A stretch of DNA of 45,265 bases from Candidatus Methylomirabilales bacterium (GTDB taxonomy: Bacteria; Methylomirabilota; Methylomirabilia; Methylomirabilales; CSP1-5): NCBI GenBank assembly GCA_046758505.1, contig JBHIAH010000017.1:1-45265 (forward strand). The letters run 5' to 3'. Shown piece after piece: positions 8,067-31,994 of this stretch (position 1 is its first letter; the number at the start of each line of letters is the position of its first letter). The position numbers and the translations under genes are program-made. The notes beneath the pieces are model-generated. The model was not told where the DNA came from, did not search any database, and was given only the letters and a program-made list of their open reading frames with translations.

Positions 8067-8067
8067 C

Positions 8068-9393: not shown

Positions 9394-12315
9394 CTATCCC
9401 TCCACGGATCCGGCTGTGATCTTCTTCAGGTAGGTAATCGCGGGTTCGGTGTTCAGGTCCTCGAGGACCCGGTAGCGCCGCGGATCCTTCGCTCGCTTGG
9501 AGACGTCGCTTTCCGCATCCTTGAGATCGCCAAAGACGATGGCCCGCGTGGGGCAGGTCTGGGCGCAGGCGGGGACAATCTCCCCGTCTCGGACGGGGCG
9601 CTCCTCCGCCTTGGCCGCGAGCTTTCCCTGCTCAATCCGCTGCACGCAGAAGGTACACTTCTCCATGATGCCCATCGTCCGGACAGTGACATCCGGGTTG
9701 AGCTGCAGGTGGAGCGGCTCCGGCCACTCCGCCATGAACCAGTTGAACCGGCGGACCTTGTACGGGCAGTTGTTAGAGCAGTACCGGGTGCCGACGCACC
9801 GGTTGTAGACCTGCACGTTGAGGCCTCCCGGATTGTGATAGGTGGCGTACACGGGGCAGACCGGCTCGCATGGGGCATTGTCACATTGCTGACAGAGCAT
9901 GGGGAGGAAGTGGTGTGCGGGTCGGTCGGCCTCTCCGAGGTTCACGCGTTCGACGCGGATCCAGGACATCTCCCGCCCCGCCCCCACCTGCTCCTTCCCC
10001 ATGACCGGAATATTGTTTTCCGCGTAGCAGGCGGTCACACAGGCCCCGCAACCGATGCAGGCATTGAGGTCGATCGTCATGCCCCAGCGGTGGTGGTGAT
10101 GCGGATGCTCCGGATAGATCTGGAGGAAGTGCGGGGGCGCCTTTGCGTGACGACCACTCTGCAGGGTGGCTAGGGGGATGGTTTGGATGATTTCCCGGTC
10201 GTTGGGCCGGTCACTTCCCGATGTTGAGACGAGCGGATGGCGCTTTCCCGTCGGGGTGATGGTCACCCCCGTGGCGATCCAGGGAAGCCCGCCCGAGCGT
10301 TCCTCGGGTTTGGCGGAAAGAAGGGGAATGGGGTTGGCACCCCGCCCGGTCGCGTAGCGGCCGAACGCAGTGTGGCCCTGGCCCACGGGGACCGCGACCG
10401 TCCCAGGGCGCACCCCGCCGGAGAGGTGGGCCGGGAGTTCCACGTGCCCAAGGGGAGATTCGATGCGGAGCAGGTCCCCCTCTTGTACCCCGAGCGGCTT
10501 GGCATCGGCAGGGTGGATTTCGAGCCAGTTATCCCAGACGATCTGCGTCAGGGCATCGGGAAGTTCCTGAAGCCAGGGACGGTTCGCCATTCGCCCGTCG
10601 TAAAAGAATGGAGAGGGATAGGGGATCAGCGTAGGGGAGTCGGTCTCCCCGACAATCTTTGCGGGCTCGAATCGGTAACGAAATGCCGTGGGCTCCAGCC
10701 CGACAGAGCGCGCGCGGCTGGATCGGAAGAGACCGCCGTGCTGCAGTGCCCCGGCCCAGAAGGATTCGAAGTCCTCCGTGGACTTGAGCGTGCGGTGCAG
10801 TGCCTTCCACTCCCCCCTCAGATAGCTGTAGGAATCCTCCCAGGGGAAGCGCTCGTTGAGGCCGATCTGTTTCGCCAGGGACAACAGGACATCCCCGAGG
10901 GCCCGGGTGTCGTAGAGCGGCCGCATGGCCGGCTGCTGCAGCCCGCGCGCCCCCTCCCAGGGTTCGTGGTCGCCCCAGCTCTCGAGGAAGGTATGGTCCG
11001 GCAGGATCAGGTGCGCCGCGTTCGCCGTTTCGTCGAGAAAGCTGGCAAAGCTGACCACCAGGGGAATCTTGGCGAGGGCTTTCCGAAATCGTTCCCCTTC
11101 GGGAAGGGCGAAGACGGGATTTCCCCCGGCGAGCAGCACGAGGGGGATCTCGCCCGCCTCCATCGCCTCTAGGAGGTTCCGCATCTCCCGGTATGTCGAG
11201 ATGTGCCCCGCCGCCGCGGTCGGGCCGAAACGGACTGTCCGGCCCACATTGCCAACCACATAATTGAGGAGGTTGACCGCGAGACACGTTGCTGTCCCGT
11301 TGGAAGTCTTTCCGTCCGCCAGGGCGAGACTCGGGCGGGCCCGGGCAAAGGCGCGGGCCAGCACCTGGACCTGGTCCGCCGATATCCCGGCCCGCTCCGC
11401 CACCGCGGCGGGTGTCCACGGGGCCGCCAGCTTGCGGAGTGCCGCCTCTTCCCGGGCGGGCAGGGACGTTGCCAGCCCCTCGCCAAGGATGACCTGAATC
11501 ATGCCCAGGGCCAGGAAGCCTTCGGTTCCCGGGCGAACGGCAAGCCACTCGTCGGCGTTGGCCCCCGTCAGCGAGAGGCGGGGGCCGATGTACACAAAGC
11601 GCCCCATGCGCCCCTGTCGGTAGGTCCGCATGGAGGCAAATTGCCGCGCGAACTCCACCGGTGAGAGCCACGTCTCCAGAAAGTCGGCTCCGAAGGCAAG
11701 GATCAGTTCTGTCTGCTCGAGGTCGTAAAACGGAATGGCGTCCGTCCCGAAGGCGACGCGGTTCGCCTCCCGGAGCGATTCGTAGCTCACCGCCTCGTAG
11801 CGGAGATGTCGGCCGCCCCCGAAGGCCTCGAGCCATGCCTCGATCAGGTGATCCACGCTTCCGGTGAGGAGGGGGGTGACAAACGCGATCCGATTCCCCT
11901 GCCCCCTGAGCTCCGCCAGGTGAGTGGCGAGGAGCTTTTCCCCTTCCTCCCACGCGATCGGCCGCCATTGGCCGTCCGTTCCCTTCCTCTGGGGCTGCCG
12001 GAGCCGGTCGGGGTTATAGAGCCCCTGGAGGCTGGCCTGTCCACGGGCGCAGAGGCGGCCTCGGTTCACCGGGTGATCCGGGTTCCCCTCGACCTTGATG
12101 GCCCGCCCCTCCATGGTCTTGACCAGCATGCCACAGCCGGCGGGACATTCCCGGCAGACGGTGGCGTACCAGGTGGCCTGGCCCGGGATGATCTCGTCCG
12201 GGGGGACGACATAGGGGATAAGGGTCTCGGGCGGCTGAGCAGAGCACCCGACCATGGCGGCCGTGCCCCCCCCGATCCCGAGGATCTTGAAGAAATCTCG
12301 CCGATTCACCTGCAT
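9394..12315 (-). CDS. actB: Alternative complex III subunit ActB (molybdopterin-oxidoreductase-like B1 domain fused to an Fe-S B2 domain)
   Basis: Tat motif NRRDFFK with lipobox MVGC. B2 cluster motifs CIGCGACVTAC, CQQCDNAPCEPVCP, CVGTRYCSNNCP and CTFC...CAQTCP. Start moved to ATG 12315 (GAGGAG SD). Confidence 0.93.
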   Translation of the reverse strand: MQVNRRDFFKILGIGGGTAAMVGCSAQPPETLIPYVVPPDEIIPGQATWYATVCRECPAGCGMLVKTMEGRAIKVEGNPDHPVNRGRLCARGQASLQGLYNPDRLRQPQRKGTDGQWRPIAWEEGEKLLATHLAELRGQGNRIAFVTPLLTGSVDHLIEAWLEAFGGGRHLRYEAVSYESLREANRVAFGTDAIPFYDLEQTELILAFGADFLETWLSPVEFARQFASMRTYRQGRMGRFVYIGPRLSLTGANADEWLAVRPGTEGFLALGMIQVILGEGLATSLPAREEAALRKLAAPWTPAAVAERAGISADQVQVLARAFARARPSLALADGKTSNGTATCLAVNLLNYVVGNVGRTVRFGPTAAAGHISTYREMRNLLEAMEAGEIPLVLLAGGNPVFALPEGERFRKALAKIPLVVSFASFLDETANAAHLILPDHTFLESWGDHEPWEGARGLQQPAMRPLYDTRALGDVLLSLAKQIGLNERFPWEDSYSYLRGEWKALHRTLKSTEDFESFWAGALQHGGLFRSSRARSVGLEPTAFRYRFEPAKIVGETDSPTLIPYPSPFFYDGRMANRPWLQELPDALTQIVWDNWLEIHPADAKPLGVQEGDLLRIESPLGHVELPAHLSGGVRPGTVAVPVGQGHTAFGRYATGRGANPIPLLSAKPEERSGGLPWIATGVTITPTGKRHPLVSTSGSDRPNDREIIQTIPLATLQSGRHAKAPPHFLQIYPEHPHHHHRWGMTIDLNACIGCGACVTACYAENNIPVMGKEQVGAGREMSWIRVERVNLGEADRPAHHFLPMLCQQCDNAPCEPVCPVYATYHNPGGLNVQVYNRCVGTRYCSNNCPYKVRRFNWFMAEWPEPLHLQLNPDVTVRTMGIMEKCTFCVQRIEQGKLAAKAEERPVRDGEIVPACAQTCPTRAIVFGDLKDAESDVSKRAKDPRRYRVLEDLNTEPAITYLKKITAGSVEG

Positions 12316-12328
12316 TACAAGGCTCCTC

Positions 12329-12401
12329 GTCCGATGTCCAATGTCCAACGTCCGAAGTTCATGGTCCGACTCGGTTCATGGTTCATAGTTCATGGTTCAT
12401 G
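12329..12401. repeat. Tandem heptanucleotide repeat tract (GTCCRAN / GTTCATR) between actA and actB
   Basis: gtccgat gtccaat gtccaac gtccgaa gttcatg gtccgac, then tcg, then gttcatg gttcata gttcatg gttcatg. Confidence 0.85.
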
Positions 12402-13510: not shown

Positions 13511-15163
13511 CTACCACACCCGGAAGCCCGGCGTGTTGAACGGCGTCGTGGCGATGAGCCGGACCAGGGTTGGACCGTACGCAATGACGATCATCACGCC
13601 AGCCAAGGCGAGCCACGGCCGCCACCGGTCGAGGATCGCCGGCGCATTCTCGGGACCCGACAGTGCCTCGGCGAACGGCACCTCTCCGACCGCCGGCTTG
13701 CGGGATGCCACCACCGTGAGCACGATGTTCGCGAAGTAGAGCATCGCGCTGATGAACAGGATGGTTCCCCCGATTCCCACGAGCGACAGGGCCGAGTGCC
13801 ACTCGGGCTGCAGATAGGGCGAGGCGCCGATCATGGTCCGCCGCGGCATCCCCATGAGTCCGAGGCGATGCTGGGCATTGGAGAAGATCGCCATCCCGAC
13901 GAACCAGAGCCATGCCTGGGCCAGCGCCATCCGCCGGCCCCAGAGCTGCCGCCCGCTGAGCAGCGGAACCAGCCAGTAGGTAATCCCCATAAAGGTCAGG
14001 GTCACGGCCGTTCCCACCGTCAGGTGGAAATGTCCGGGGACCCACGCCGTGTTGTGGACCACCAGGTTCATGGTGAACGACGCGTTGATCAGGCCCCCCA
14101 CGCCGCCAAAGGCAAAGAGGAGCATCGCCAGGACCTGCGCCGCCACGGACGGATCGCCCCAGGGGAGCTTTCCGAACCATGCAAACCACCCCCTGCCTCC
14201 GCGCGCCCGTGCCCCGGTCTCGAGGGAGGCAACGACGCCGAAGAAGGTCAGGAGGCTGGGGAAGAAGACCGCGAACGTGAGGAAGGCGTGAAGCAGCTTC
14301 CACCCCTCCCCGATACCCGGATCGGTGAACTGGTGGTGGAAACCGAGCGGGGTCGAGAGGATGAGGAACAGGATGAACGTGACCCGTGCCAGCGGGTCGC
14401 TGAAGAGCCGTCCCCCGGCCTGGCGTGGGAGGAGCGTGTACCAGGAGAGGTACGCGGGGAGAAGCCAGAAGTACACGATCGGGTGCCCGGTGTACCAGAA
14501 GAGGACCCGCGCCAGGAGTGCGTCGGTCCCCGCGACGAGCCCGAGCGACCACGGGATCAGCATGAAGAGCATCTCGGCCGCCAGTCCCAGCGAGGCGATC
14601 GTCCACATGACAAAGGTGACCAGCGACATGAAGGCGGGCAGCGGCGTGCGGGTCCCGGGATTCCGTGCCCGCCAGCGGCGATACGTCAGCACGAGGTTCA
14701 GGGTCACGAGCCAGGTGGCGACCACGACCACGGTGAGCCCGGTGTAGAAGGTCCAGTGGGCTTTCATCGGGGGGTAAAAGGTGTACAGGACGGTGGCCGC
14801 GTTGCCCAGCAGGGGGATCGCCGCGAGAACAAGTCCCCCCGTCATGAGCCAGAAGGTTGCCCACGCCAGGAGACGGCTCCAGAGCGGCATGCCGAGGGCC
14901 CGGACGGTCATGAACTGCAGAAACCCGGCAATGAAAAATGTCGTCCAGACCAGGACATTGAGCACCCCATGAAGGCTGAGGCCCTGGTAGTACGACTTGA
15001 TCACGGGTGCAAGCCAGGGGTATAGATCGATGCCGGCCTGCTCGAGCGCCTGAAAGAGCCCCAACAGGACGCCGCCAAAGAGCGCGAGGAGCGCGACGAC
15101 GAGGTAGGCGACCGTCAGGCGGTCTTCCGGTCCAAGATCAAGTGCTCTATTTGGGGCGGTCAT
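13511..15163 (-). CDS. cbaA: B-family (ba3-type) heme-copper oxygen reductase subunit I
   Basis: YYQGLSLHGVLNVLVWTT, FWYTGHPIVYFW (His plus cross-link Tyr), GFHHQF, GHFHLTVG and GMPRR. The start overlaps the cbaB stop (ATGA). Confidence 0.95.
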   Translation of the reverse strand: MTAPNRALDLGPEDRLTVAYLVVALLALFGGVLLGLFQALEQAGIDLYPWLAPVIKSYYQGLSLHGVLNVLVWTTFFIAGFLQFMTVRALGMPLWSRLLAWATFWLMTGGLVLAAIPLLGNAATVLYTFYPPMKAHWTFYTGLTVVVVATWLVTLNLVLTYRRWRARNPGTRTPLPAFMSLVTFVMWTIASLGLAAEMLFMLIPWSLGLVAGTDALLARVLFWYTGHPIVYFWLLPAYLSWYTLLPRQAGGRLFSDPLARVTFILFLILSTPLGFHHQFTDPGIGEGWKLLHAFLTFAVFFPSLLTFFGVVASLETGARARGGRGWFAWFGKLPWGDPSVAAQVLAMLLFAFGGVGGLINASFTMNLVVHNTAWVPGHFHLTVGTAVTLTFMGITYWLVPLLSGRQLWGRRMALAQAWLWFVGMAIFSNAQHRLGLMGMPRRTMIGASPYLQPEWHSALSLVGIGGTILFISAMLYFANIVLTVVASRKPAVGEVPFAEALSGPENAPAILDRWRPWLALAGVMIVIAYGPTLVRLIATTPFNTPGFRVW

Positions 15164-15666
15164 GATTTTGAGCCTCCGGGCGCGGGCGGTACGACGATGA
15201 CCTTTCCCCCCATCGTGTGATGTGCGATTCCGCAATACTCGTGACAGAAGAAGGGATATATCCCGGGGCGGTCGAAGCGCGTGGTGGCTCGCGCGACCTG
15301 CCCCGGCAGGATCATCACGTTGACGGTGGACCGGGGGATAAAGAGCCCGTGGACCACGTCCCGGCTGGTGGCCACGAAGGTGACGGTCGAGCCGGCCGGC
15401 ACGCGGATCACGTTCGGGGTGAAGAGCCAGATGCCGGCGACCATCCGGACTTCGTACCGCCCCGGCCCGACCTCGACCACGCCCGGCTGGTCAAATGGGG
15501 CCGTCGTCAGTATCTTGGTGGGATCGACACGCCCCGCGTCCCCCGGCAGGTGCACGTCGGCGCCAAAGGCAAAGACGACCAGCGCCACCAACATGGCGAC
15601 CGGAATGGCAATGCTGGGGAGGATCCACGCAAGCTCGTACAGGTAGACGGTGCTGCCGCGTCTCAT
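15160..15666 (-). CDS. cbaB: ba3-type oxidase subunit II (CuA)
   Basis: One N-terminal TM, DVVHG and CHEYCGIAHHTM CuA ligands. Confidence 0.95.
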   Translation of the reverse strand: MRRGSTVYLYELAWILPSIAIPVAMLVALVVFAFGADVHLPGDAGRVDPTKILTTAPFDQPGVVEVGPGRYEVRMVAGIWLFTPNVIRVPAGSTVTFVATSRDVVHGLFIPRSTVNVMILPGQVARATTRFDRPGIYPFFCHEYCGIAHHTMGGKVIVVPPAPGGSKS

Positions 15667-16322: not shown

Positions 16323-16724
16323 CTACCCGCGTGCAAGATGAGCCAAGGTCTTTCGTTCCAGTCGGGCGACGAGTTGCGGCCTTATCTGACTCCAATCCCG
16401 ATGGAGGGGGCAGGGATCCCTCTCGCCGCATCGGTCTTCCCAGAAGAGGCAACGCGCAAAGAGATCCACCCCCTCGATGCTCTCCAGGATTGCCCGCACG
16501 GCGATCTGGCCGGCCGGCCTGGCCAGGGCGTACCCCCGGTGACGGCCCCGGTGAGATCGCACCAGGCCATGGCCTAAGAGCTTCTGAAAGATCTTGGAGA
16601 GAAATCCTGCCGGGATCCCCAGCGCATCCGCGATCTCCGGTACCGAGCAGACCGTCCCTGCTGGCCGGCGGGCCAGGAAGATCAGGGCCCGAAGCGCGTA
16701 TTCCGTTTCCCGCCGTAGCCGCAT
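16323..16724 (-). CDS. Rrf2-family transcriptional regulator with putative Fe-S ligands
   Basis: EYALRAL...EIA...FLSKIFQKL...GLVRSHRG..GY.LARP winged helix, and a C-terminal CLFWEDRCGERDPCPLH (3 Cys + His). Start moved to ATG 16724. Confidence 0.92.
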   Translation of the reverse strand: MRLRRETEYALRALIFLARRPAGTVCSVPEIADALGIPAGFLSKIFQKLLGHGLVRSHRGRHRGYALARPAGQIAVRAILESIEGVDLFARCLFWEDRCGERDPCPLHRDWSQIRPQLVARLERKTLAHLARG

Positions 16725-17047
16725 GGTCTCAACGGACCTCTTGACTCCACTGGCCTCCGGGTCCGTGGAATCCAGCAAGGGCCATACCAGCAGTGGAGAC
16801 GGACGCTGCGGATCGCTAACTATAGATTTCAGCGCGCTTTGATTTTTGGACTCTCCGCAGCGATGCGCGTCCTGCGGGACAGAAGTGCCTCAGCGTTTTG
16901 TCTGTTCTCAGCCGGAATCGATTCTAACTGATGATTGAGAAAGGGAAGAGAGACGTGGGGCACCGATGTACCAGAGTATGGCCCCCGGTCACGATATGTC
17001 CCATGGCTGGGTTTGCATCTTTTACCTCGCCCCTTCCCGGTTTTCTC

Positions 17048-17512
17048 TCATTGCTGTCCTGGGGACGTGGCCTCAAGTCCCCGAATGAGCGCTTGGTGTT
17101 CAGCCGAAGAAAGGGTGCCTTGTGGGTTGAACGCGGCGTAGTACCACGGGGGCATTTCCCCCTTCCGCACGGCCCGGACCAGCTTCTGTGCCCCCTTCTG
17201 CGACCGGTCCCCCTCCGAGAAGTTCAGAACCTTCCGCCCGTCGTTCACATCGCGCTGAGTGAGCCATGACACGGGGGCGATGTTGGCGTACCACGGCCAG
17301 ACCGTCTTGTTGCTATGGCAGTCATAGCAGGCGCGGGCAGCCAGCTCCTGTGTCTGTCGGCTGTCCCAGGTCGGCTCCGTCCGCACGGGGGGATCCGTGT
17401 GATTGTGCCCGTAGGGGATCGCCTGAATGCCCAACACAAACATGACGACGCCGATCAATACCCGCCGTGCCCGCCTAGACCTCCGGCTGCTCATGTCGTG
17501 CATTCCATCCAT
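17048..17512 (-). CDS. Membrane-anchored monoheme cytochrome c of the Haem_bd family
   Basis: N-terminal TM, then ACYDCHSNKTVWPWYANIAPVSWL, LNFS and EMPPWYY. Start uncertain (17512, 17503 or 17494). Confidence 0.85.
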   Translation of the reverse strand: MDGMHDMSSRRSRRARRVLIGVVMFVLGIQAIPYGHNHTDPPVRTEPTWDSRQTQELAARACYDCHSNKTVWPWYANIAPVSWLTQRDVNDGRKVLNFSEGDRSQKGAQKLVRAVRKGEMPPWYYAAFNPQGTLSSAEHQALIRGLEATSPGQQ

Positions 17513-18074
17513 TGGGGCACCGGGTGACTCCGGAGTGGTTTTCTGTGGCGCGTCCCGCTCCCTGGTGCTCAAAGCTCTTCCTCGTATCCAGGTGTGGCCG
17601 GTGGCGGAGTATATCGGATTTGACTTTCACGATGCAACATCCTTAATCACCCCTCGGGTTCCTCGAGGGACTGGCGAAGATGCTGCAGCCGTCGGCCCCC
17701 GCCATGAGAGGGTTCTGTTCCTGCTCCCCACTCTCTGTCCTATCAGGCCAACCCCTGCCCACTTTTTCACCTTCCCTCTTCGCAAGGGGAGCCAGAACCA
17801 TACCTTCCACAAATGGTCTTCGCGGGGCATCGCCTCCCCACTGTGGCACTGGTGCCCCAGCAGAAACCCTTGTCATGAGAGGAAAATTACGTAGGCGAGA
17901 AGCTATCGCTGTCCCATGCCAGGGACAGTCGAGAACCACAAATTGAGCTGAACCCGGAACGTGCTCGAAAATTCGCGGAGTTAGCGACACCACGTCTCTG
18001 GCACCCTTCTTGCCGGCCATGCTGGGAAGATTGGCAACCTCATGAAATTCCAGATGCGTGAACTTGAACAGGAG

Positions 18075-18178: not shown

Positions 18179-18856
18179 ATGGAAGGACCGGTTCGCGTCC
18201 TGGTGGCCGACGACCACATCCTCTTCCGCAGCGGGTTAATCAGTCTATTATCCGCCGAGCCCGGGATTGAGGTGGTGGGTGAGGCCGACACCGGCCGGAG
18301 GACGGTGGAGAAGACCAGGGAACTCATGCCGGATGTAGTCCTCATGGACGTCTACATGCCGGACTGGGATGGGATCGAAACCACCCGTCACCTGAAGGCC
18401 GAGCTTCCCTACGTCAAGATCATCATCCTGACGATTGCCGAAGATGAGAAAGTCCTCTTCGAGGCGGTGAAGGCCGGGGCCCAGGGGTATCTTCTGAAAA
18501 AGATCGAGCCCCAGCAGCTCTTCGACCAGATTCGAGCGGTCGCGTGCGGTGAGGGGGCGATCGCGGGCCACCTGGCCGCCAGGCTGCTCAAGGAATTTGC
18601 CCGCCAGAACAAACCGGACGGGGCGCACCCCTTGCAGGAGCTCACGGGCCGGGAGCGCGAAGTGCTCCAGCTCGTTACCCAGGGCAAGACGAACAAGGAG
18701 ATTGCCGGTGAGCTTTGCATCGCCGAGAACACGGTGAAGAACCACTTGAAGAACATTCTCGAAAAGCTCCACCTCCAAAACCGCGTCCAGGCGGTCGCCT
18801 TTGCCCTCCGACAAGGGTTAAGTGTCCCATCGCCTTCCAACCAAGCCAACCAATAA
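18179..18856 (+). CDS. NarL/LuxR-family response regulator (paralog 2, orphaned)
   Basis: VRVLVADDH...PDVVLMD...GAQGYLLK, and HTH LTGREREVL...NKEIA...TVKNHLKNILEKL. Confidence 0.95.
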   Translation: MEGPVRVLVADDHILFRSGLISLLSAEPGIEVVGEADTGRRTVEKTRELMPDVVLMDVYMPDWDGIETTRHLKAELPYVKIIILTIAEDEKVLFEAVKAGAQGYLLKKIEPQQLFDQIRAVACGEGAIAGHLAARLLKEFARQNKPDGAHPLQELTGREREVLQLVTQGKTNKEIAGELCIAENTVKNHLKNILEKLHLQNRVQAVAFALRQGLSVPSPSNQANQ

Positions 18857-19095: not shown

Positions 19096-19614
19096 GTGGG
19101 CTGGGGAAGGTTCGGGCTTGTCCTGAGTGTGGTTGCTGTTCTCGTCGGCTGCGGCGGAATCCCGCCGCTCCCGTCGGGATCGCTCGATCCACTGGGGCCG
19201 GTGACGACCAGCCCGGGGAAGACCGCGGAAGGGCCCGGCGCAAGAGATGAGACCCCGCCTCAATCAACGGCCGCGTCCGCCGGGGAAACAGGGAGTATGA
19301 AGCAGGCCAAAGTGTGGGTTGGGCGGTATCGGGACAGCCGGGGCGAGGGGGACATCACGTTTTCCCTGGTTCGGAAAGAAGCGACCCTGTACGGGGTCTG
19401 GACACTCAGAACGGGAGGAGGTGGGCCGGTCAAGGGGACGATCGGATCGGACGGAGAGGCGCTGACCTTCCGCATGGAGAACACCGCGCCGGAGTGCCAG
19501 GGGTTCTTTACCGGGCACGGCATGGTGGAGCAGAAGGTCATTCGGGGGGCGTACGAAGGGAAAGATTGCCAGGGAGAGGTATCGGACGGGTACCTCGAGC
19601 TTCGGTTGAAGTAG
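19096..19614 (+). CDS. Hypothetical lipoprotein
   Basis: AGGAGG SD and GTG start, lipobox VLVGC, Pro/Ser/Thr linker, then a beta-rich domain with two Cys. Confidence 0.75.
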   Translation: MGWGRFGLVLSVVAVLVGCGGIPPLPSGSLDPLGPVTTSPGKTAEGPGARDETPPQSTAASAGETGSMKQAKVWVGRYRDSRGEGDITFSLVRKEATLYGVWTLRTGGGGPVKGTIGSDGEALTFRMENTAPECQGFFTGHGMVEQKVIRGAYEGKDCQGEVSDGYLELRLK

Positions 19615-19673
19615 TCGCCTGCAGGTATCTCTTCGTGGGTGAGCAATGAATGCTGGGCGAAAGGAGGTATGAT

Positions 19674-20864
19674 ATGTCGAAGCGAACTGTGGCCCTCTGC
19701 GCGACGCTTGCCATGTTGGCGACTGGCCTGATCATGGCGCCGTCCGCGTGGGCGGTCCCGGCCTTTGCGCGGGCATACGGCATGAGCTGTTCGGGCTGCC
19801 ACACCACCTGGCCGGCGCTGAACGCCACCGGGCGGAAGTTCAAAGAGAACGGATACACGTTCCAGCGCGGAAAGCCCAAGGAGATGAAGAATATCGGGAA
19901 GCTGGGGAACATCCCGATCACCTTTCCCTGGGCCCTGGTGGTCAAGAGCCGCCCCTACGACAAGAAGGAGAACAAGGACACGAAGCTTCGCGCACTTCAC
20001 GAGCTCGAGTTCTTCGTCGCCGGCAACGCCTGGAACTACGGATCCTTCTTCGCCGAGTTCGAAGCGGAAGACGAGGCGGGTTTCGACTTCGAGCTGGCGC
20101 ATGCGGTCGGCGGCATTCACCCGCACCCCCTGGCCAATATCGTCCTCGGGAAGGCGCAGGTGTTTCACGTCGATCCGCACGATACCCTCACCAACGATCG
20201 CCGGCTCACGCGGAGCAAGCGGCAGGCGTTGGCCCAGGGGGAAACAACCGGGGTCACGCTGGATTCACCGGTCCAGATGGTGAGCCTCTACGGGCGGGAG
20301 ACGGTCGCCAACAAAGTCTTCTATGCGCTGACCTATTCGGCCGACGTGAAGGATGACGAGGGGGAAGGCCCCAAGGATTGGACGGGGCGGCTGGTCGTCG
20401 ACGTCCTTCCCCAGGTCTCGGTCGGGGGCTTCATCACCACCGGCGAGCAGGCAAAGACCGTCGGGGCGATCACCCGCGAGCTCGACTTCAAGCGGTACGG
20501 GTTTGACGTCCAGGCGCAGATTGACGGCGTGAACGTGCTCGGGGCCTTTGTGAAGGCGGAGGACGATCTGTTCGCGGCCGGGGATGAACAGAACAATCTC
20601 TGGTACGGCGAGATCTACTATACCGTGGACAAGAAGGTCCTGGATAGCGTCGGCATCCCCGGGGTCAGAATCGTCCCCATCTTCCGGTTCGACCAGTACG
20701 AAAAAATGGATGGGGACCAACGGTTCAAGGAGGTCACGGCGAACATTTCCTACTATCCCTGGGAGAACGTGAGGGTGTACACTGAGTTCTTCAAGCCCCT
20801 CGATGCGCCGTCGGGAACGGCAAAGCCGTGGCGGTGGACGGTGCAGGTCGAGTTCGGGTTCTGA
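19674..20864 (+). CDS. cyc2: Cyc2-like outer-membrane monoheme cytochrome-porin fusion (copy 1)
   Basis: Signal peptide, then AVPAFARAYGMSCSGCHTTWPALNATGRKFKENGY (AxPxFAR-x5-CxxCH-PxL signature). Amphipathic beta-strands and a C-terminal Phe (VQVEFGF). Start ATG 19674 with AGGAGG SD. Confidence 0.75.
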   Translation: MSKRTVALCATLAMLATGLIMAPSAWAVPAFARAYGMSCSGCHTTWPALNATGRKFKENGYTFQRGKPKEMKNIGKLGNIPITFPWALVVKSRPYDKKENKDTKLRALHELEFFVAGNAWNYGSFFAEFEAEDEAGFDFELAHAVGGIHPHPLANIVLGKAQVFHVDPHDTLTNDRRLTRSKRQALAQGETTGVTLDSPVQMVSLYGRETVANKVFYALTYSADVKDDEGEGPKDWTGRLVVDVLPQVSVGGFITTGEQAKTVGAITRELDFKRYGFDVQAQIDGVNVLGAFVKAEDDLFAAGDEQNNLWYGEIYYTVDKKVLDSVGIPGVRIVPIFRFDQYEKMDGDQRFKEVTANISYYPWENVRVYTEFFKPLDAPSGTAKPWRWTVQVEFGF

Positions 20865-20869
20865 GGGCG

Positions 20870-20997
20870 CGTGCCGGCAGGGCACTCTCCTTCGCCGGCA
20901 CGGGCAGCCCTCGCACAGGGCCGTTTCACGGACAGGCCAACGCAAGGGCTCCACAACCGCTGAAGCCGCGGGGAGGGAAGGACCTCCCTCCCCGCGG
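20870..20997 (+). other. Two strong intergenic stem-loops
   Basis: CGTGCCGGC (20870-20878) pairs with GCCGGCACG (20894-20902). A perfect 13-bp stem CCGCGGGGAGGGA / TCCCTCCCCGCGG (20966-20997) has a 6-nt loop. No long U tract follows. Confidence 0.7.
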
Positions 20998-21019
20998 ACT
21001 TTCCCGGATGAGGAGAGGA

Positions 21020-22198
21020 GTGAAACTCTTGATGACTGCATGCCGAGCGATTTTGGCCTTCGTCGTCGTTAGTCTTCTCACGCTGACCTCGACGCCGCCC
21101 GTTGCGGCTGATGACACCCCCGAAGAGGTTTTCGAGGAAACCTGCGCGCTCTGCCACAGCCTCGATCGTGCGAAGGAGCGGCACCTCACCCGCAGCGAGT
21201 GGAACGAGGTTCTCGACCGCATGGTCGGGTTTGGGGCGCAGATCTCCGACAAGAAGCGGGGGATGATCCTCGCGTACCTGGTCAAGACGCAGGGGCCCCA
21301 GAAGGCGCCAGCGGCCAAGGCACCGAGAGCGTATGTGGTCAGCGAAAAGTCCGAGGAGGTGTGGGTCATCGACGTGGCGACCCGCAAGGTGGAGCGCAAG
21401 ATCAAGGTCGGCAAGCTCCCCCACGGCATCGCTGCCTCCCCGGACGGCAAGGCCCTTTACGTCACGAACATGGGGAGTAACGATATCACGGTCATCAATA
21501 CGAAGACCTACGAGACCACCACCATGGGCGGGACCGGCCTGAACCCCCACGAATGCGCGGTAAGCCCCGCGGGCCGGTTCCTCTACGTGTCGAACCCGAG
21601 CAGTAACGCCATAACCGTGCACGACATGGCGACTCATACCCCGGTTGCCACGATCCCGGTTGGGCGATTTCCGCATGGCGTGGTCATCTCGGCCGATGGA
21701 AAAATGCTCTATGCAGCCAACATGGAGTCCCACAGCATCTCGGTGGTCGATACGGCCACGAATCAGGTGAGTGCCACCATTCAGACGGCCGCCGGACCGC
21801 ACAAGCTGGCCCTGAGTCCGGACGGCAAATTCCTGTACGTCGTCAACACGGATGACAACCGCCTTTCGATTATCGACACGGCCCAAGGTCGCCAAGTCAA
21901 ATCGGTGCTGGTGGGCCGGGCGCCCTACGACGTCACGGTTGGGACCGGCGGGACCACCGTCTGGGTCGCCAACGGTGAATCTGATAGTGTCGAGGCGCTC
22001 GACAGCCGGACCGGCGAGGTGCTGGCCACCGTGACCGTGTCGGGCAGTCCGCACGGGCTGGCCCTCACCCCTGACGGCAAGGAGCTGTGGGTCGCCGACA
22101 TCGCTGCCAACGCCGTCGCGATCGTCGATATCGCCCAGCGAAAGGTCGTCGCCACTATCCCCGTGGGGAATCATCCCCACCTCGTCCTCATCCGCTGA
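21020..22198 (+). CDS. Periplasmic monoheme cytochrome c fused to a 7-bladed YVTN/YncE-type beta-propeller
   Basis: Signal peptide, CALCH...W..VLDRM cytochrome domain, then seven (V/T)G..P(H/Y)...SPDG-type repeats. Start near 21020-21032 after AGGAGAGGAG. Confidence 0.85.
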   Translation: MKLLMTACRAILAFVVVSLLTLTSTPPVAADDTPEEVFEETCALCHSLDRAKERHLTRSEWNEVLDRMVGFGAQISDKKRGMILAYLVKTQGPQKAPAAKAPRAYVVSEKSEEVWVIDVATRKVERKIKVGKLPHGIAASPDGKALYVTNMGSNDITVINTKTYETTTMGGTGLNPHECAVSPAGRFLYVSNPSSNAITVHDMATHTPVATIPVGRFPHGVVISADGKMLYAANMESHSISVVDTATNQVSATIQTAAGPHKLALSPDGKFLYVVNTDDNRLSIIDTAQGRQVKSVLVGRAPYDVTVGTGGTTVWVANGESDSVEALDSRTGEVLATVTVSGSPHGLALTPDGKELWVADIAANAVAIVDIAQRKVVATIPVGNHPHLVLIR

Positions 22199-22449
22199 TC
22201 CTTTCGTGCACTGCTCGCCGCTCCGGTGGCAGCCTGAGCACGACCAGCTGCCCCAGGCCGCCCCGACTGGCTGCTACCCGCTCTGACCTGCTCCAGGCAA
22301 CCGGCTCGTTGGCGTGAGAAGGGCCGGCATAATGAACCGCTCATTTTCGATACCGAGCAACGGGCGGTCGAGGGAGGTCAAGAGTCCAACGTCGCATGCC
22401 GATTGGCCTCCCGACCCTCAAAGGAACTGTTGCCAGGAGGAGTAGGACG

Positions 22450-24429
22450 GTGGTCGCGCCGTCGCCTAGTTTCCCTGGGAAGATGAGTCGGAGGCTCAGC
22501 CTGGCCGCTGCCTCGCTCTTCTCTTTGGTCCTCGTGGTTGGGGGGATCTCTATCCTGCTGGCGTATTGGATCTTGGAAAGCACCGATCAGATCGAAACGC
22601 TGAGCGAAGAGATCAAGGGCATCGACCAGATCCATTTCACGGCCCATCACTTGGTCGATACCATCTCATATGCCGCAACCCGTGGGAGACCCGATGCCGG
22701 AGACGATCTTCCGCACATCATCTCGAATCTGAGCGGTCAGGTGCAGGCGTATCTCACGTATTTGAAGACGAACAAGGGTCTTCTGGAAGAGGAGCTCGAG
22801 TTTGAGATTTTCCAGGAGCTCATGGGCACCGCCTCCGACCTCGGCCGCGTCTCCGAGAGGATCTTCGGAGCGGTCACGCGGGGGAATCAGGCAAAGGCCG
22901 GCGATCTTCAAAGCCTCCTTGGACTTATCCGCAGGATTCACCGTCGGGCTGAACAGCTTACCCATATCCACCAAGCGAAGATCCGCCAACTCGTCCAGAG
23001 TAGCGAGGCGAAGATGCGGCTCATCCTACTTTTTTATTTGGCCTTCGTTTTGGTTGGCGGCCTGCTGATCGTGATGGGGAGTTACTTTTTTTCCCGGGCC
23101 ATCGTTGCCCCTCTCCGGACATTGGCGACCGCCACGCAGGAAGTGGCCGGCGGACACTTCAAGAAGCGGGTTTCCGTCTCCTCCAATGACGAGATCGGCC
23201 AACTCTCCCATGCCTTCAACGTAATGGCCGAGAAGTTAGAGCAACACGAGGAGCAGCTAACAAGCCTGAACGAAAGCTTAGAACACAAGGTGCGAGAGGC
23301 GGAGGCCCTCTACAAGATCGGGACGGAGATTCTGGGGCTGTTGGATCTCGACAAGGTCCTGCACTCCGTCGTGGAGAAGGCAAAGGATCTGCTGGGCTGT
23401 GAGATCGGTGCGCTATGTCTGCTAGATGATGAAAAGGACGAACTGGTTCCCCGGGTGACCAGCGGCCCCGCCGAGGCCTTTGGGAAGGGGAGGAGCAAGC
23501 GGGTGGACCGGGACCTGGCAGTCGCCCCGACGGCCCATTGCCCCCCGGCGCAAGGAGCAGGAGGTCAAGGGAGATCTCTCTTTCGTTGCGCGATGGTGAA
23601 GCCCGAATACCTCGAGGCCCATCTGACCGTCCCCTTGAAAAGAGGGGAGAAAGTGATCGGGGTCTTCTGCGTCGGGGATAGGAGGCCTCGGGAGTTCTCT
23701 GCCGCCGAGGTCGACCTGCTCGCGGGTCTCGCCACGCAGGCCGCCATCGCCATTGAGAATGCCAAGCTTTACGAGAGGACACAAGGCTTGGCTATCCTGG
23801 AGGAGCGGGAGCGGATCGCCCGGGAGATGCATGATGGCCTGGCCCAGGCCTTGGGCGCCATGCACTTCCGGATCAGCAGGGCTCAAGAGTTGCTGAAGGG
23901 GCCCCAAACGGCCAGGGTCCAGAACGCCCTCGAGGAGATCCGGAAGATGGCCGAGGGCGCCTATGAAGAGATCCGTCAGGCCATCTTTGGCCTGCGAACC
24001 ATGGTCTCCCGAACGTTGGGGTTGGTCCCGACCCTGACGGAGTATCTGCACGAGTGGAGCCTCCAGAACGGCGTCGCCGCCGATCTCGAGATCGCCAACA
24101 AGAAGGCGATCAACCTTTCACCGGAGGCGGAATTACAACTGATCCGGATTATCCAAGAAGCATTGGCGAATGTGCGGAAGCATGCCGCGGCACGACACGC
24201 CCGGGTACGGTTCGAACTGGATGGGGACCATCTCCTCGTAACGGTCGCCGACGACGGAAGGGGGTTTGATCTGGCCGAGCTGCCACGGCGAACGAGTCAG
24301 AGCTTCGGATTCGAGACGATGCGGGAGAGGGCGGAATCAGTGGCCGGAAGCCTCCAGGTGCAGTCGCAACCCGGAAGAGGGACTTCCGTCGTCGTTCGCC
24401 TTCCCTTTTCCGGGGACGGGAGATTATAG
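22450..24429 (+). CDS. Sensor histidine kinase (periplasmic sensor - HAMP - GAF - HisKA_3 - HATPase)
   Basis: Two TMs, DEIGQLSHAFNVMA, GAF ending LATQAAIAIENAKLY, ERERIAREMHDGLAQ, QEALANVRKHA and DDGRGF. Probable GTG start at 22450. Confidence 0.95.
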   Translation: MVAPSPSFPGKMSRRLSLAAASLFSLVLVVGGISILLAYWILESTDQIETLSEEIKGIDQIHFTAHHLVDTISYAATRGRPDAGDDLPHIISNLSGQVQAYLTYLKTNKGLLEEELEFEIFQELMGTASDLGRVSERIFGAVTRGNQAKAGDLQSLLGLIRRIHRRAEQLTHIHQAKIRQLVQSSEAKMRLILLFYLAFVLVGGLLIVMGSYFFSRAIVAPLRTLATATQEVAGGHFKKRVSVSSNDEIGQLSHAFNVMAEKLEQHEEQLTSLNESLEHKVREAEALYKIGTEILGLLDLDKVLHSVVEKAKDLLGCEIGALCLLDDEKDELVPRVTSGPAEAFGKGRSKRVDRDLAVAPTAHCPPAQGAGGQGRSLFRCAMVKPEYLEAHLTVPLKRGEKVIGVFCVGDRRPREFSAAEVDLLAGLATQAAIAIENAKLYERTQGLAILEERERIAREMHDGLAQALGAMHFRISRAQELLKGPQTARVQNALEEIRKMAEGAYEEIRQAIFGLRTMVSRTLGLVPTLTEYLHEWSLQNGVAADLEIANKKAINLSPEAELQLIRIIQEALANVRKHAAARHARVRFELDGDHLLVTVADDGRGFDLAELPRRTSQSFGFETMRERAESVAGSLQVQSQPGRGTSVVVRLPFSGDGRL

Positions 24430-25095
24430 ATGGATACCTTCAGGATCCTCCTGGTGGACGATCACGCCCTTTTTCGCGACGGGCTGGCAAGCCTCCTGGC
24501 GGAACAGGCAGACTTTGAGGTGGTGGGGGAGGCCGAGAGTGGGGAAGAAGCGCTCGAGAGAGCCAAGGAGTTGGAGCCTGATCTCATCCTGATGGATATC
24601 TACATGCCGGGCGGGGATGGCCTGACCGCCACCCGCCGGATCAAGGAAGAGATGCCCTCCGTCAAAATCGTTATGCTCACGATCTCTGAGGAGGATCAAA
24701 AGCTCTTCGACGCCGTTAAGAGCGGAGCCCAGGGCTATCTCCTGAAGAGAATGAAGGCTCAGCAGTTCCTCGAGTTGCTCCGGGGAATCTCCCGGGGCGA
24801 GGCCCCCATCTCTCGCGCTATGGCGGCCAAGATCCTGGCCGAGTTCGCCCGCCAGGCCCCCCACGATCCCGGGTCGGCACCCGGCCTTCGACTCAGCCCC
24901 CGGGAGCGGGAAGTCCTCGAGCTCTTGACAAAGGGGCAGACCAACAAAGAGATTGCAACCGCGCTGGGGATCAGCGAAAACACGGTGAAAAATCGCCTCA
25001 AGAGTATCCTGGAGAAGCTCCACCTCGAGAACCGGGTCCAGGCCGTAGCTTACGCCCTCGAGAGGGGCTTGGTCAAAAGGACCCCTCCCGGCTAG
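24430..25095 (+). CDS. NarL/LuxR-family response regulator (paralog 3)
   Basis: RILLVDDH...PDLILMD...GAQGYLLK, and HTH LSPREREVL...TVKNRLKSILEKL; abuts the kinase stop. Confidence 0.95.
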   Translation: MDTFRILLVDDHALFRDGLASLLAEQADFEVVGEAESGEEALERAKELEPDLILMDIYMPGGDGLTATRRIKEEMPSVKIVMLTISEEDQKLFDAVKSGAQGYLLKRMKAQQFLELLRGISRGEAPISRAMAAKILAEFARQAPHDPGSAPGLRLSPREREVLELLTKGQTNKEIATALGISENTVKNRLKSILEKLHLENRVQAVAYALERGLVKRTPPG

Positions 25096-25313: not shown

Positions 25314-26651
25314 ATGAAGGGAGATACGTCTCTTATCGCGGCGCTCGTCCTGATCCTGGCCACCGGGTGTCTGATCCTTCTGCTCTTTCCTGATTCCTCG
25401 GAGGCGGTGCCGGCCTTCGCCCGAAAATACAAGGTCGAGTGTACCGTGTGCCATACGCGACCGCCCCGGCTGAACCCCTTCGGCGAACGGTTCCTGGAAA
25501 ACGGCTACCAGATCCCGGGGACGCAGGACGGTGGGATTGTGGAAAAGCTCAAATTGGGCAATGTGACACTCGACCTCGTCCATAATTACTTCGCGGTGCG
25601 CCTCCGGGGGAACGTCTACCGGCAGTTCGACGTCGAAACAGAGGATGAGGCGAAAGACAAAAAGGAGCTGACCTTTCCCGAGATTGTCAATGTTTTCTTT
25701 GCCGGGACGCTCACCAAGAACGTCGGAACCTTCATTGAGCTGGAGGGGAACATTGAAGAGGAGGAGACCGAGTTCGAGCGGAGTATCCTGAGCTTGAACA
25801 ACCTCTTCGGCGACTGGATCGGTCCTAACGTTGCCCATCTTCGCTTCGGGAAACTGGACCCCTCCGCCTACTTTTCCTTCCCCACCCACCGGCAGCAACT
25901 CCTCCCGGTTCCTGCGGAGATCGAGGGAGGCATGCTCGTGCGCCCCCCACTGGTCCCCAACGCCGGGGCGGCCAAGTTCTTCGGCCTCAGCAATAACGAG
26001 GGCAAATCGATCCTGCCATTGAAGCCGATCCTGTACAATACCACTGACGCGGTGGGTCTCGATCTGCACGGTCGCCCCTTTGGCGATATCTTTCTCTACC
26101 AGATGGGCATCCTCAATGGAGCGGACGAGGAGTTCGGCGACTCGAATACCGCGAAGGATCTTTACGTCATGGGCCGGTTCGACTGGGCCCGTTCCGATCT
26201 CTTCTCCGCTAGCCTCTCCGCCTTTGCGTACTTCGGGTACAACACCGCCAAGGTCGGAAACGACGGGGTGGACTGGCACCGCTACGGCATCGGGGCGAAC
26301 GTCCGGTGGAGGATGATCGACGTGTACGGGGCCTTTGTTTGGGACAAGATCCTGGATCTCTCTTCCACCACCGAGGCAACCTTCGACGATACGGCCTCCG
26401 GCATCACTGTAGAGGCGGATGTGTTGGTCACGAACTGGTTGCTCGCCTCGGTCCGGTTCGACCACCTGAACGCCGGCGGACGCCTTGCCATGAAAGCAGA
26501 CAACACGGTGCTCGGGACGCAGCTCAAGTTCTACCTCACAGACAATATCGGCCTGTATGTCCGAGACGATATCAACCTGCGAGATGAGGGCGAGAGCGCA
26601 CTCGAGAATCTGCGGAATACTTTCCTGGTCGGGGTTGACCTGGCCTTCTAG
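25314..26651 (+). CDS. cyc2: Cyc2-like outer-membrane monoheme cytochrome-porin fusion (copy 2)
   Basis: Signal peptide, then AVPAFARKYKVECTVCHTRPPRLNPFGERFLENGY, a beta-barrel-like body and a C-terminal VGVDLAF. Confidence 0.78.
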   Translation: MKGDTSLIAALVLILATGCLILLLFPDSSEAVPAFARKYKVECTVCHTRPPRLNPFGERFLENGYQIPGTQDGGIVEKLKLGNVTLDLVHNYFAVRLRGNVYRQFDVETEDEAKDKKELTFPEIVNVFFAGTLTKNVGTFIELEGNIEEEETEFERSILSLNNLFGDWIGPNVAHLRFGKLDPSAYFSFPTHRQQLLPVPAEIEGGMLVRPPLVPNAGAAKFFGLSNNEGKSILPLKPILYNTTDAVGLDLHGRPFGDIFLYQMGILNGADEEFGDSNTAKDLYVMGRFDWARSDLFSASLSAFAYFGYNTAKVGNDGVDWHRYGIGANVRWRMIDVYGAFVWDKILDLSSTTEATFDDTASGITVEADVLVTNWLLASVRFDHLNAGGRLAMKADNTVLGTQLKFYLTDNIGLYVRDDINLRDEGESALENLRNTFLVGVDLAF

Positions 26652-26663: not shown

Positions 26664-27425
26664 ATGAGGGAAAAAGTGCAAATGGGAAGTCTCGCCCTGG
26701 CCTCTATTTTCCTCCTTGCCCTACCGGCTTGGGGAGTCAAGCCGCTGGAGACACCAGAGCAGGTGACCCGTGGCAGGGCAATCTTTGAGCAATCGTGTAT
26801 CCTCTGTCACGGGGCCACAGGCGAGGGGGATGGGCCGGCGGCCTTTTTCATCGCCTCGTACGGGGCTCCCCGGCCGCAGAACTTCCATACGGACAACTTC
26901 AAATTTCGCTCAACCCCCTCGGGGATGCTCCCCACCGACGACGACCTGTTCCGGACCCTCACGAGGGGGGTTCCCGGCTTCATGCCCTCCTTCGCCGGGC
27001 TGAACGAACAGGAGCGGTGGCAGGTCATTTACTACATCAAAAGCTTTAACCCCAAATTTCAAACTGAGAAACCGGAGAATGTTGAGATCAAGGTCGGGCA
27101 CCCGCATCTCCCCACTCCGGGCCATCTCGCTCGCGGCAGGAAGCTGTACCGTGCGGCTGGATGTGGCGAGTGCCACGGGAAGAGTGGCCGCGGCGATGGG
27201 GAGAAGGCAGATGCGCTCAAGGATTATCGGGGGTTTCCGATCCGCCCCACCGACCTCACCAATCCCACGGCATTCAAGAACGGGAGCAGCCAGGAGGATA
27301 TCTACCGCACCATCATGACCGGCCTAAACGGGACTCCTATGCCCTCTTATGCGGACGCCTTTGAAGGCATGGAGGACGACATCTGGCACATGGTGCATTA
27401 CATTCTTTCCTTATCGAAAAGATAA
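26664..27425 (+). CDS. Periplasmic diheme cytochrome c
   Basis: CILCH and CGECH, FKFRST...PTDDDLFRT..MPSF, and DIYRTIMTGLNGTPMPSY. Homologous to the N-terminal half of 40920-42551; starts 12 nt after the cyc2-like gene. Confidence 0.9.
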   Translation: MREKVQMGSLALASIFLLALPAWGVKPLETPEQVTRGRAIFEQSCILCHGATGEGDGPAAFFIASYGAPRPQNFHTDNFKFRSTPSGMLPTDDDLFRTLTRGVPGFMPSFAGLNEQERWQVIYYIKSFNPKFQTEKPENVEIKVGHPHLPTPGHLARGRKLYRAAGCGECHGKSGRGDGEKADALKDYRGFPIRPTDLTNPTAFKNGSSQEDIYRTIMTGLNGTPMPSYADAFEGMEDDIWHMVHYILSLSKR

Positions 27426-28736: not shown

Positions 28737-28738
28737 CA

Positions 28739-31993: not shown

Positions 31994-31994
31994 C

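Follow-up and report, generated by a model that had tools for sequence, protein, structure and literature searches.

Gene Structure and Domain Organization

The DNA analysed here (hereafter the window) is the full 45,265 nucleotides (nt) of contig JBHIAH010000017.1 from Candidatus Methylomirabilales bacterium (GCA_046758505.1). It carries on the plus strand a small lipoprotein-like gene (P0124; 172 amino acids, aa; 19096..19614), a gene for a Cyc2-type fused monohaem cytochrome-porin (P0123; 404 aa; 19650..20864) and, last, the gene at the centre of this work (P0001; 21008..22198), which encodes a cytochrome c domain joined to a YVTN beta-propeller. The P0001 gene lies in an open reading frame (ORF) spanning 20828-22198 and, translated from the ATG at 21008, gives a protein of 396 aa. 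Because the plus-strand product has relatives at an E-value of 1e-138, an antisense ORF at 20753-22180 was rejected as the gene. On inspection, no Shine-Dalgarno-like sequence was seen upstream of ATG 21008; the GTG at 21020, taken as the start in an initial annotation made from the sequence, lies 4 nt past GAGGAG, and an alternative start, ATG 21032, lies about 11 nt past AGGAG. The signal peptide is retained with any of these three starts. As read from the translation, residues 1-34 (21008..21109) form a hydrophobic, signal-like N-terminus ending in PPVAA/DD, where the slash is the cut mark, and residues 6-26 appear as a low-confidence helix in the AlphaFold model. P0001 is most likely a Sec-exported periplasmic protein.

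The haem domain covers residues ~35-95 (21110..21292, plus strand) and was recognised from its CxxCH motif, its Pfam match and the structural model. A motif scan found a single CxxCH in P0001, C46-A-L-C-H50 (nt 21143-21157). The candidate sixth haem ligand is Met72 (nt 21221-21223), and the Met column is kept in all five cytochrome-fused relatives. With a CxxCH, a signal-like N-terminus and a conserved Met as predicted distal ligand, P0001 has the features of a c-type cytochrome. The domain scored 26.4 bits with the Pfam model Dehyd-heme_bind (cut-off 25.2) and 21 bits with Cytochrome_CBB3, under the cut-off of 27 for that model; in the AlphaFold model it is all-helical, with four helices. Judged from the sequence, it is probably a small, class-I-like, mono-haem domain ligated through Cys46, Cys49 and His50, with Met72 as the sixth ligand. 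A Pro/Ala-rich linker follows (residues ~96-101; 21293..21310, plus strand), within a block (residues 91-100) where the predicted local distance difference test score (pLDDT) is 69.

The remainder of the protein, residues 102-396 (21311..22195, plus strand), is a seven-bladed YVTN beta-propeller according to TIGR02276, AlphaFold and Foldseek. The NCBIfam YVTN repeat model TIGR02276 matched seven stretches of P0001 with 240.9 bits (cut-off 27.85), and the Pfam model YNCE (PF21783) scored 95 bits (cut-off 27.1). The initial annotation had described a CALCH haem domain joined to a seven-bladed propeller, and the single CxxCH, the seven TIGR02276 stretches and the AlphaFold model confirm this layout. 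Conserved Pro residues at positions 138, 180, 222, 264, 306, 348 and 390 recur with an exact 42-residue period, and the pairs that follow them read HG, HE, HG, HK, YD, HG and HL in blades 1 to 7. The motifs PHG, PHE, PHG, PHK, PYD, PHG and PHL reported earlier, with six His and one Tyr at the equivalent site, were therefore read correctly. These residues, one per blade and hereafter called the ring, are H139, H181, H223, H265, Y307, H349 and H391. They span 21422..22180 on the plus strand, with codons at 21422-24, 21548-50, 21674-76, 21800-02, 21926-28 (Tyr), 22052-54 and 22178-80.

Propeller Fold and Position of the Ring Residues

The AlphaFold model of P0001, built on 75 sequences, had a mean pLDDT of 92.3 and a predicted template modelling score of 0.76. 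Its 28 strands form seven blades in a closed propeller, with blade 7 completed by the N-terminal strands 107-133 and the C-terminal strand 390-395. In each blade, the ring His or Tyr stands second in the innermost strand. We take this strand position to be the mouth of the central channel, the place where metals are held in NosZ, thiocyanate dehydrogenase and the lactonase-type propellers.

The best match among solved folds in Foldseek was 1l0q_A (template modelling score 0.71, root-mean-square deviation (rmsd) 1.2 Å, 290 columns). The same entry, an archaeal S-layer YVTN propeller, was also the best sequence match among solved structures (E 4e-57). Hydrazine synthase beta was the next solved match. 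P0001 and 1l0q share seven YVTN blades of 42 residues; however, the sequence alignment places M, Q, L, K, S, A and Y at the ring column of 1l0q, and this protein has neither a His ring, nor a haem domain, nor a known cofactor.

Conservation of the Ring in the Close Family

The close family of P0001 was drawn from its best 120 relatives by sequence search, to which we added two Methylomirabilota orthologues. Among the relatives, P0002 and P0003 are full-length and cytochrome-fused, P0008, P0011 and P0012 are cytochrome-fused fragments, and P0017 is a fragment lacking a CxxCH. Five others (P0004, P0005, P0007, P0009 and P0010; 616-638 aa) are fused to a multicopper oxidase: a complete two-domain oxidase, its copper-binding His motifs visible in the alignment, precedes a propeller with 44-51% identity to that of P0001. 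One close relative, P0006, has a complete ring, but its fusion partner is an NHL propeller and no redox domain is present. The two orthologues are P0125, from a Methylomirabilota metagenome-assembled genome (locus L001), which is 68% identical to P0001 in the alignment and 70% in the best tblastn segment, and P0126 (locus L002), which is ~49-50% identical.

Ring conservation was counted over the 11 full-length family sequences. His occupies the ring in all 11 for blade 1, in nine for blade 2, in nine for blade 3 and in ten for blade 4, where it persists even if the preceding Pro is Ala. In blade 5, Tyr is found in 8 of 11. His falls to 4 of 11 in blade 6, the rest being Gly, Gln or Arg, and to 6 of 11 in blade 7, where all five oxidase-fused forms have Asn. 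As to the conservation of the ring His, proposed as a check in the initial annotation, most sequences keep them in blades 1-4, and blades 6 and 7 vary. Departures also occur within the family: the orthologue with 70% identity has Asp in blade 5 and Gly in blade 6, Arg replaces the ring His of blades 1 and 4 in the cytochrome-fused fragment P0011, and the oxidase-fused P0009 and P0010 keep only one and two ring His, respectively, while the rest of their propeller is conserved. E182, the carboxylate that follows the blade-2 His, is present in most relatives. Blades 5-7 vary, so that conservation does not extend to the entire ring, which makes a strict CuZ-type centre with seven ligands unlikely. 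From these alignments, selection would act at most on a four-His core (blades 1-4) plus the Tyr, and not on the whole seven-fold ring.

A second conserved feature is the loop H205-D-M-x-T-H210 (21620..21637, plus strand), identified in the alignment. It follows strand C of blade 2 and lies on the other face of the propeller from the ring. In 11 relatives, D206 is invariant and H205, T209 and H210 are each kept at a level of at least 90%. A second metal site and a contact with the N-terminal redox domain are both possible roles for this loop. It matches the ring in conservation and, like most ring His, is absent from P0009.

Across YVTN proteins, the residues at the ring column are specific to subfamilies, such as R-E-E-R-M/V-W in the pyrroloquinoline quinone (PQQ)-associated type, V-F-E-G-F-A, or H-A-H-A-I-H, as would be expected of a position that lines a pocket. 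A profile search of 1.84 billion representatives gave 149,994 matches at E ≤ 0.001; the best 150 of them were nearly all giant multi-propeller proteins and included only P0003 and P0006 from the close family. A search for longer fused forms found none above 40% identity, its matches being generic surface proteins. Seven further loci from Nitrososphaerales, Thermoproteota and Thermoplasmata had 25-28% identity to P0001, and the protein encoded at the one examined, L003, is a generic YVTN surface protein that lacks ring His.

His-Rich Rings and Redox Fusions Across YVTN Proteins

The initial annotation had cautioned that PHG is a fairly common variant of the YVTN repeat, and rightly so: His is the commonest residue at the ring column. 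It was found in 162 of 582 aligned repeats from the best 120 relatives, which gives a probability of 0.0025 for at least six His in seven blades, and in 83 of 480 repeats once the close family and the cupredoxin-fused family were removed (1.6e-4), although these figures are only a guide because blades arise by duplication and are not independent draws. Fusion to a cytochrome c, cupredoxin or multicopper oxidase domain was seen in 15 of the 19 proteins with at least four ring His and in 5 of the 101 others (Fisher p = 1e-11), a contrast that derives from two lineages only. Three of these five redox-fused proteins with fewer than four ring His are close-family fragments.

The cupredoxin-fused relatives (P0036, P0051, P0053, P0061, P0080, P0089, P0103, P0104, P0107 and P0110) are proteins of ~400 aa with a C-terminal cupredoxin domain of the type-1 copper kind. 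All ten have at least four ring His, and their ring reads H-H-H-R-H-H-R. As far as our searches show, this clade is apparently uncharacterised in the literature searched. An unfused relative is annotated in Acidovorax. When a cupredoxin-fused relative was compared with plasmids by tblastn, none of the 590 records reached 80% query coverage.

A quick maximum-likelihood tree was calculated from 103 propeller domains, with P0006 and the fragments excluded by filters on length and repeat count. The P0001 family formed one clade with a support of 100 in the Shimodaira-Hasegawa-like approximate likelihood ratio test (SH-aLRT). The oxidase-fused forms were nested among the cytochrome-fused forms (SH-aLRT 96-99), and the cupredoxin family made up a separate clade (SH-aLRT 98), with the backbone of the tree unresolved. 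Because of this nesting, the propeller appears to be a module whose high-potential redox partner domains are interchangeable.

A Cyc2-Type Neighbour and a Conserved Gene Module

The gene preceding that of P0001 was overlooked in the initial annotation and provides the strongest functional clue. In the available text of Keffer et al. (PMC8406198), Cyc2 is described as having a signal peptide, one CxxCH with AxPxFAR[Q/K][T/Y] before it and PxL after it, and a 16-strand barrel similar to OprO/OprP. P0123 has a signal-like N-terminus, AVPAFARAY, then its sole CxxCH (CSGCH) with PAL four residues on, and a C-terminal Phe. Its AlphaFold model (pLDDT 90.0) contains 16 long strands, and Foldseek returned the 16-stranded porins OmpK36/OmpF as well as OprO (4rjw, rank 4) and OprP (2o4v, rank 18). 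A Cyc2 barrel was defined as 16-stranded, OprO/OprP-like and at least 365 aa, and P0123 falls within this definition. Among 88 relatives and paralogues of P0123, all have one CxxCH, 85 have PxL, 46 match a relaxed form of the motif and 21 the strict one. The named relatives come from Methylomirabilia, NC10, Binatia, Elusimicrobia and Gammaproteobacteria genomes. In the protein-cluster look-up, a 20% share of Porin_O_P in one neighbour cluster of P0123 was a weak lead, the clusters being otherwise unnamed.

The lipoprotein-like P0124, which is conserved beside the cytochrome-propeller gene, has a Cys in a lipobox-like site, a disordered linker and a domain of ~100 aa with two conserved Cys. Pfam and NCBIfam scans gave no match for this protein, and its neighbour clusters were unnamed.

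At L001, a kinase gene comes first, followed by those for two regulators, the cyc2-like gene, the lipoprotein gene and the cytochrome-propeller gene. At L002, where the contig starts 332 nt upstream, the lipoprotein gene abuts the cytochrome-propeller gene. The cyc2-like gene is therefore linked to the cytochrome-propeller gene in both loci with upstream DNA, and the lipoprotein gene in all three loci. The lipoprotein, the Cyc2-type porin and the cytochrome-propeller form a conserved three-gene module, of which the P0001 gene is the last.

The 143-nt spacer between the cyc2-like gene and the P0001 gene (20865..21007, plus strand) folds as RNA with a minimum free energy of -89.3 kcal/mol (z = -5.96), and none of 200 shuffled sequences was as stable. 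It contains three stable hairpins, including a perfect 13-bp stem at ~20968-21000 just before the start, and no clear U-tract. This element may be an attenuator or may act on mRNA stability.

Comparison With Known Propeller Proteins and Metal-Oxidising Systems

Several known identities were considered for P0001 and rejected. With the NCBIfam YncE model the protein scored 102.8 bits (cut-off 400). With the PQQ-associated propeller model (TIGR03866) it reached 235.5 bits (cut-off 287.3), and the ring of that type is not made of His. For the clade III N2O reductase L-NosZ (NF052460), P0001 scored 104.7 bits against a cut-off of 700 and had no cupredoxin domain among its Pfam matches. The same model was run on 17 relatives, of which 16 scored 84.8-130.2 bits (P0045 at 128.1 and P0032 at 130.2) and P0042 scored 95.1. 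Scores for canonical NosZ (TIGR04244/TIGR04246) were 35.1 (twin-arginine translocation type) and 21.9 bits against 625, and hydrazine synthase beta (NF052340) gave 159.9 bits against 560. NosZ and L-NosZ are relevant here as seven-bladed propellers in which inner-strand His hold a metal beside a fused electron-transfer domain. L-NosZ is lactonase-type and, in the portion of the report available, is present in Nitrospirota and Nitrospinota (PMC13477213).

P0001 resembles cd1 nitrite reductase and NirN in having an N-terminal cytochrome c domain and a propeller, and the cd1 nitrite reductase/NirN/NirF group was rejected as well. The match to Cytochrom_D1 (PF02239; 56.8 bits, cut-off 25.5) is not diagnostic because all ten other YVTN relatives scanned also pass this model. 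Foldseek superpositions on NirN and NirS (6rtd, 1nir) span both domains, but with an rmsd of 22-24 Å. The d1 domain has eight blades, with its ligand site at the propeller centre, whereas seven are seen in the P0001 model. The parallel with cd1 nitrite reductase drawn in the initial annotation is right as to the combination of cytochrome c and propeller, and fails on the superpositions and the number of blades.

Quinohaemoprotein amine dehydrogenase was also rejected, with 55.7 bits for the beta subunit (cut-off 223.2) and 23.2 bits with a second model (cut-off 274.35). Its alpha haem-binding domain is the sole above-cut-off Pfam match of the P0001 haem domain, and its beta subunit is a seven-bladed propeller, as in P0001. 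Domain scans found no gene for the gamma-subunit quinone cofactor of this type nearby in the window.

Other systems resemble P0001 in the kinds of parts they combine. According to the accessible part of its description, thiocyanate dehydrogenase holds three copper ions in the central tunnel of a seven-bladed propeller and passes its electrons to monohaem cytochrome c552, a separate protein (PMC9456337); the cytochrome is fused in P0001, and thiocyanate dehydrogenase was not among the sequence matches to solved structures (E ≤ 0.001). In Mn(II)-oxidising Pseudomonas, the mnxG operon, as presented in the available text of two papers, has a YVTN/lactonase-type propeller gene and a gene with a cytochrome c domain, under two-component control (PMC11409713, PMC8218464). 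Oxidase, propeller and cytochrome are separate genes there, whereas the same three kinds of domain are fused in the P0001 family. In phototrophic Fe(II) oxidisers, the c-type cytochrome Fe(II) oxidase FoxE is encoded with a periplasmic propeller, FoxY, which, in the part of the source at hand, differs in that it is encoded by its own gene and is a PQQ-type propeller of eight blades with Trp-docking motifs (PMC10654088); we found no sequence relation between FoxY and P0001. A similar gene order is seen in the pairing of Cyc2 with a periplasmic cytochrome in iron oxidisers, where a gene with the Cyc2 signature is likewise followed by one for an exported c-type cytochrome. Compared with the dihaem partner in such pairs, P0001 is monohaem and fused to a propeller of 300 residues, and a conserved lipoprotein gene is added. 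No description of a cytochrome c-YVTN fusion linked to cyc2 was found in the literature listings and cited passages searched, a scope that left out bench work in subscription journals. The parts of the system are of known kinds; their combination, the conserved module and the oxidase-fused sisters are undescribed in the literature searched.

Proposed Role of P0001 and Alternative Explanations

Because it is encoded beside a Cyc2-type cytochrome-porin, P0001 probably takes part in a metal-oxidising electron chain. The reading we prefer, held tentatively and with somewhat less than even confidence, is that P0001 may be the periplasmic redox partner of the Cyc2-like porin and that its His-lined pocket would bind some ligand, possibly a metal. 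Electrons would enter through the Cyc2-like outer-membrane cytochrome from a donor outside the cell, which, to judge from characterised Cyc2 proteins, would be Fe(II). Electrons would then move from the Cyc2 haem to haem c of P0001, and from there to the cytochrome oxidase or the alternative complex III encoded in the window. The propeller would serve as a recognition module, and the predicted pocket at the channel mouth, with the four conserved His of blades 1-4, the Tyr of blade 5 and two less conserved His, would bind the ligand. A metal ion (Cu or Fe) in this pocket is possible, though on balance doubtful. The analysis shows the gene with its domains and fold, where the ring residues stand in sequence and secondary structure, how they are conserved, the Cyc2 signature and 16-strand barrel of P0123, and the synteny. 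Which proteins exchange electrons and in which direction, Fe(II) as the donor and any pocket ligand are inferred. The multicopper oxidase fused to the propeller in the sisters, together with the propeller of the mnxG operon as far as the available text of the papers describes it (PMC11409713, PMC8218464), would point by analogy to metal-oxidation chemistry.

Several observations weigh against a role as redox partner. The function of P0123 as an Fe(II) oxidase is assumed by analogy, and the protein has Ala at the Q/K position, its sole deviation from the Cyc2 motif as given in the accessible text (PMC8406198). The cyc2-like gene of L001 is broken into two frames that overlap (1900-2946 and 2856-3476), owing to either a frameshift or an assembly error. 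Synteny beyond the window comes from L001 and L002 only, the latter lacking upstream DNA. Finally, a propeller of 300 residues exceeds the needs of an electron shuttle, favouring a catalytic or binding role.

Such a catalytic role for the propeller, with Cu or Fe held in the axial His/Tyr ring, oxidising or reducing some small substrate and exchanging electrons with haem c or, in the sisters, with the type-1 copper of the multicopper oxidase, is an option we regard as unlikely, although much in the family would suit it. The ring residues stand second in the innermost strand of every blade, the His of blades 1-4 are well kept, the E182 carboxylate lies next to the blade-2 His in most relatives, and His-rich rings coincide with redox fusions, including all ten cupredoxin-fused proteins. 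NosZ is a precedent, with a metal centre in the tunnel of a seven-bladed propeller and a c-type cytochrome as partner. Thiocyanate dehydrogenase is another such case in the part of the source available (PMC9456337). On the other hand, blades 6 and 7 vary, even an orthologue with 70% identity replaces the ring residues of blades 5 and 6, P0009 and P0010 have lost most ring His and P0011 has Arg in two of the core blades. The association with redox fusions comes from two lineages joined by an unresolved backbone, and domain scans of the window identified no metal-insertion or chaperone genes next to the gene. The His-ring metalloenzyme put forward in the initial annotation therefore stands as to its architecture and the innermost-strand position of the residues, and falls short in that the ring is not conserved as a whole. 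Quite unlikely, in our view, is a propeller that acts as a structural or assembly factor, stabilising or positioning the cytochrome-porin, with His as a habit of the lineage and no redox or metal role. It would agree with the general frequency of His at the ring column, with the cofactor-free 1l0q as the best structural match and with P0006, which has a full ring and no redox domain. It also has a precedent in extracellular electron transfer, the NHL propellers of the Uet cluster, which are discussed in the accessible text as modules for protein-protein interaction and stabilisation (bioRxiv 10.1101/2022.05.06.490989). This explanation nevertheless leaves unexplained the cytochrome c or multicopper oxidase partner in 10 of the 11 full-length members, and the retention of the blade 1-4 His amid changing neighbours. 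Far less probable still is that P0001 is a known propeller enzyme of nitrogen-oxide metabolism, be it like cd1/NirN, L-NosZ or hydrazine synthase. The cytochrome c-propeller layout, the Cytochrom_D1 score, the weak matches to hydrazine synthase beta and L-NosZ, the alignment of NirN and NirS over both domains and the presence of Nxr/Nar-like genes in the window would fit such an enzyme. Yet the curated cut-offs are widely missed (104.7/700, 159.9/560, 35.1/625), the D1 match is shared by every other YVTN relative scanned, the superpositions are poor, a cupredoxin domain is absent and the P0001 model has seven blades instead of the eight of the d1 domain.

It is rather improbable that the pocket of four His and Tyr holds a redox-active metal and thereby represents a new class of propeller oxidoreductases with interchangeable electron outlets. 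If it did, these outlets would be haem c in P0001 and a complete multicopper oxidase in the sisters, and the His-ring YVTN clade with type-1 cupredoxin might show the same principle. Methylomirabilota and related uncultured lineages would then have, behind the Cyc2-like porin, an undescribed periplasmic step in oxidising Fe(II), Mn(II) or Cu(I). With a metal bound in the pocket, P0001 would join the few metalloenzymes that hold their metal at a propeller hub. Among the markers used to infer microbial iron oxidation, Cyc2 is the most widespread, and to our knowledge the acceptor of its electrons is not known in most lineages. Methylomirabilota are often reported from iron- and manganese-rich sediments, and the cytochrome-propeller and lipoprotein pair beside a cyc2 homologue is a concrete, testable candidate acceptor in this phylum. 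From the oxidase-fused sisters and the propeller of the Pseudomonas Mn-oxidase (mnxG) operon, as far as the available text on the latter goes, it seems that YVTN propellers recur in metal-oxidising systems and have been overlooked there.

Other Genes in the Window

The three-gene module is flanked by regulatory genes, and the window contains three NarL-type two-component systems. Upstream, a NarL-type response regulator (18179..18856, plus strand; Pfam Response_reg and GerE) scored 188.8 bits on the NarL model, below the cut-off of 250, and a similar regulator is found upstream in L001. Directly downstream of the P0001 gene are a HAMP-GAF-HisKA_3 sensor kinase (22396..24429, plus strand) and another NarL-type response regulator (24430..25095, plus strand), both identified with Pfam. 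These are followed by a second cyc2 homologue (P0122; 445 aa; 25314..26651, plus strand), which ends in Phe and matches AxPxFAR[QK][TY]...CxxCH...PxL exactly, as this motif is given in the accessible text (PMC8406198). Only 12 nt further on is a gene for a dihaem cytochrome c (26664..27425, plus strand) with two Cytochrom_C stretches in Pfam. Judging from these motifs, P0122 and the dihaem cytochrome make up the classical arrangement of cyc2 plus periplasmic cytochrome, in the same genome as P0001.

Two further sets are encoded on the minus strand between 5050 and 15666. An alternative-complex-III-like set (5050-12348) includes c-type cytochromes (5050..5718 and 5728..7011), an NrfD-type membrane subunit (8068..9393) and a molybdopterin-like/4Fe-4S protein of 984 aa (9394..12348). 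Cytochrome oxidase subunits I (COX1; 13511..15235) and II (COX2; 15160..15666) are also on the minus strand, and an Rrf2 regulator (16323..16778) and a Haem_bd domain protein (17048..17572) are near the oxidase genes.

On the plus strand is a further molybdopterin oxidoreductase (28724-31378), with ferredoxin-like partners at 31920-33500 and 33497-34123. On the minus strand, an arsenite-oxidase-like large subunit with N-terminal Rieske_3 (3Fe-4S) and molybdopterin domains (35060-37732) is preceded by an ORF of 186 aa (37747-38307), for which the Pfam scan at 1e-8 gave nothing. Two MauG/dihaem peroxidase paralogues (38342-39496 and 39524-40690) and, after them, an EB_dh-plus-cytochrome c gene (40920-42551) and a NarJ-like chaperone gene (42565-43353) lie on the same strand. 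A NarH/NxrB-like iron-sulfur subunit (43385-44674, minus strand) is encoded close to the end of the window, and its catalytic subunit is probably encoded past that end.

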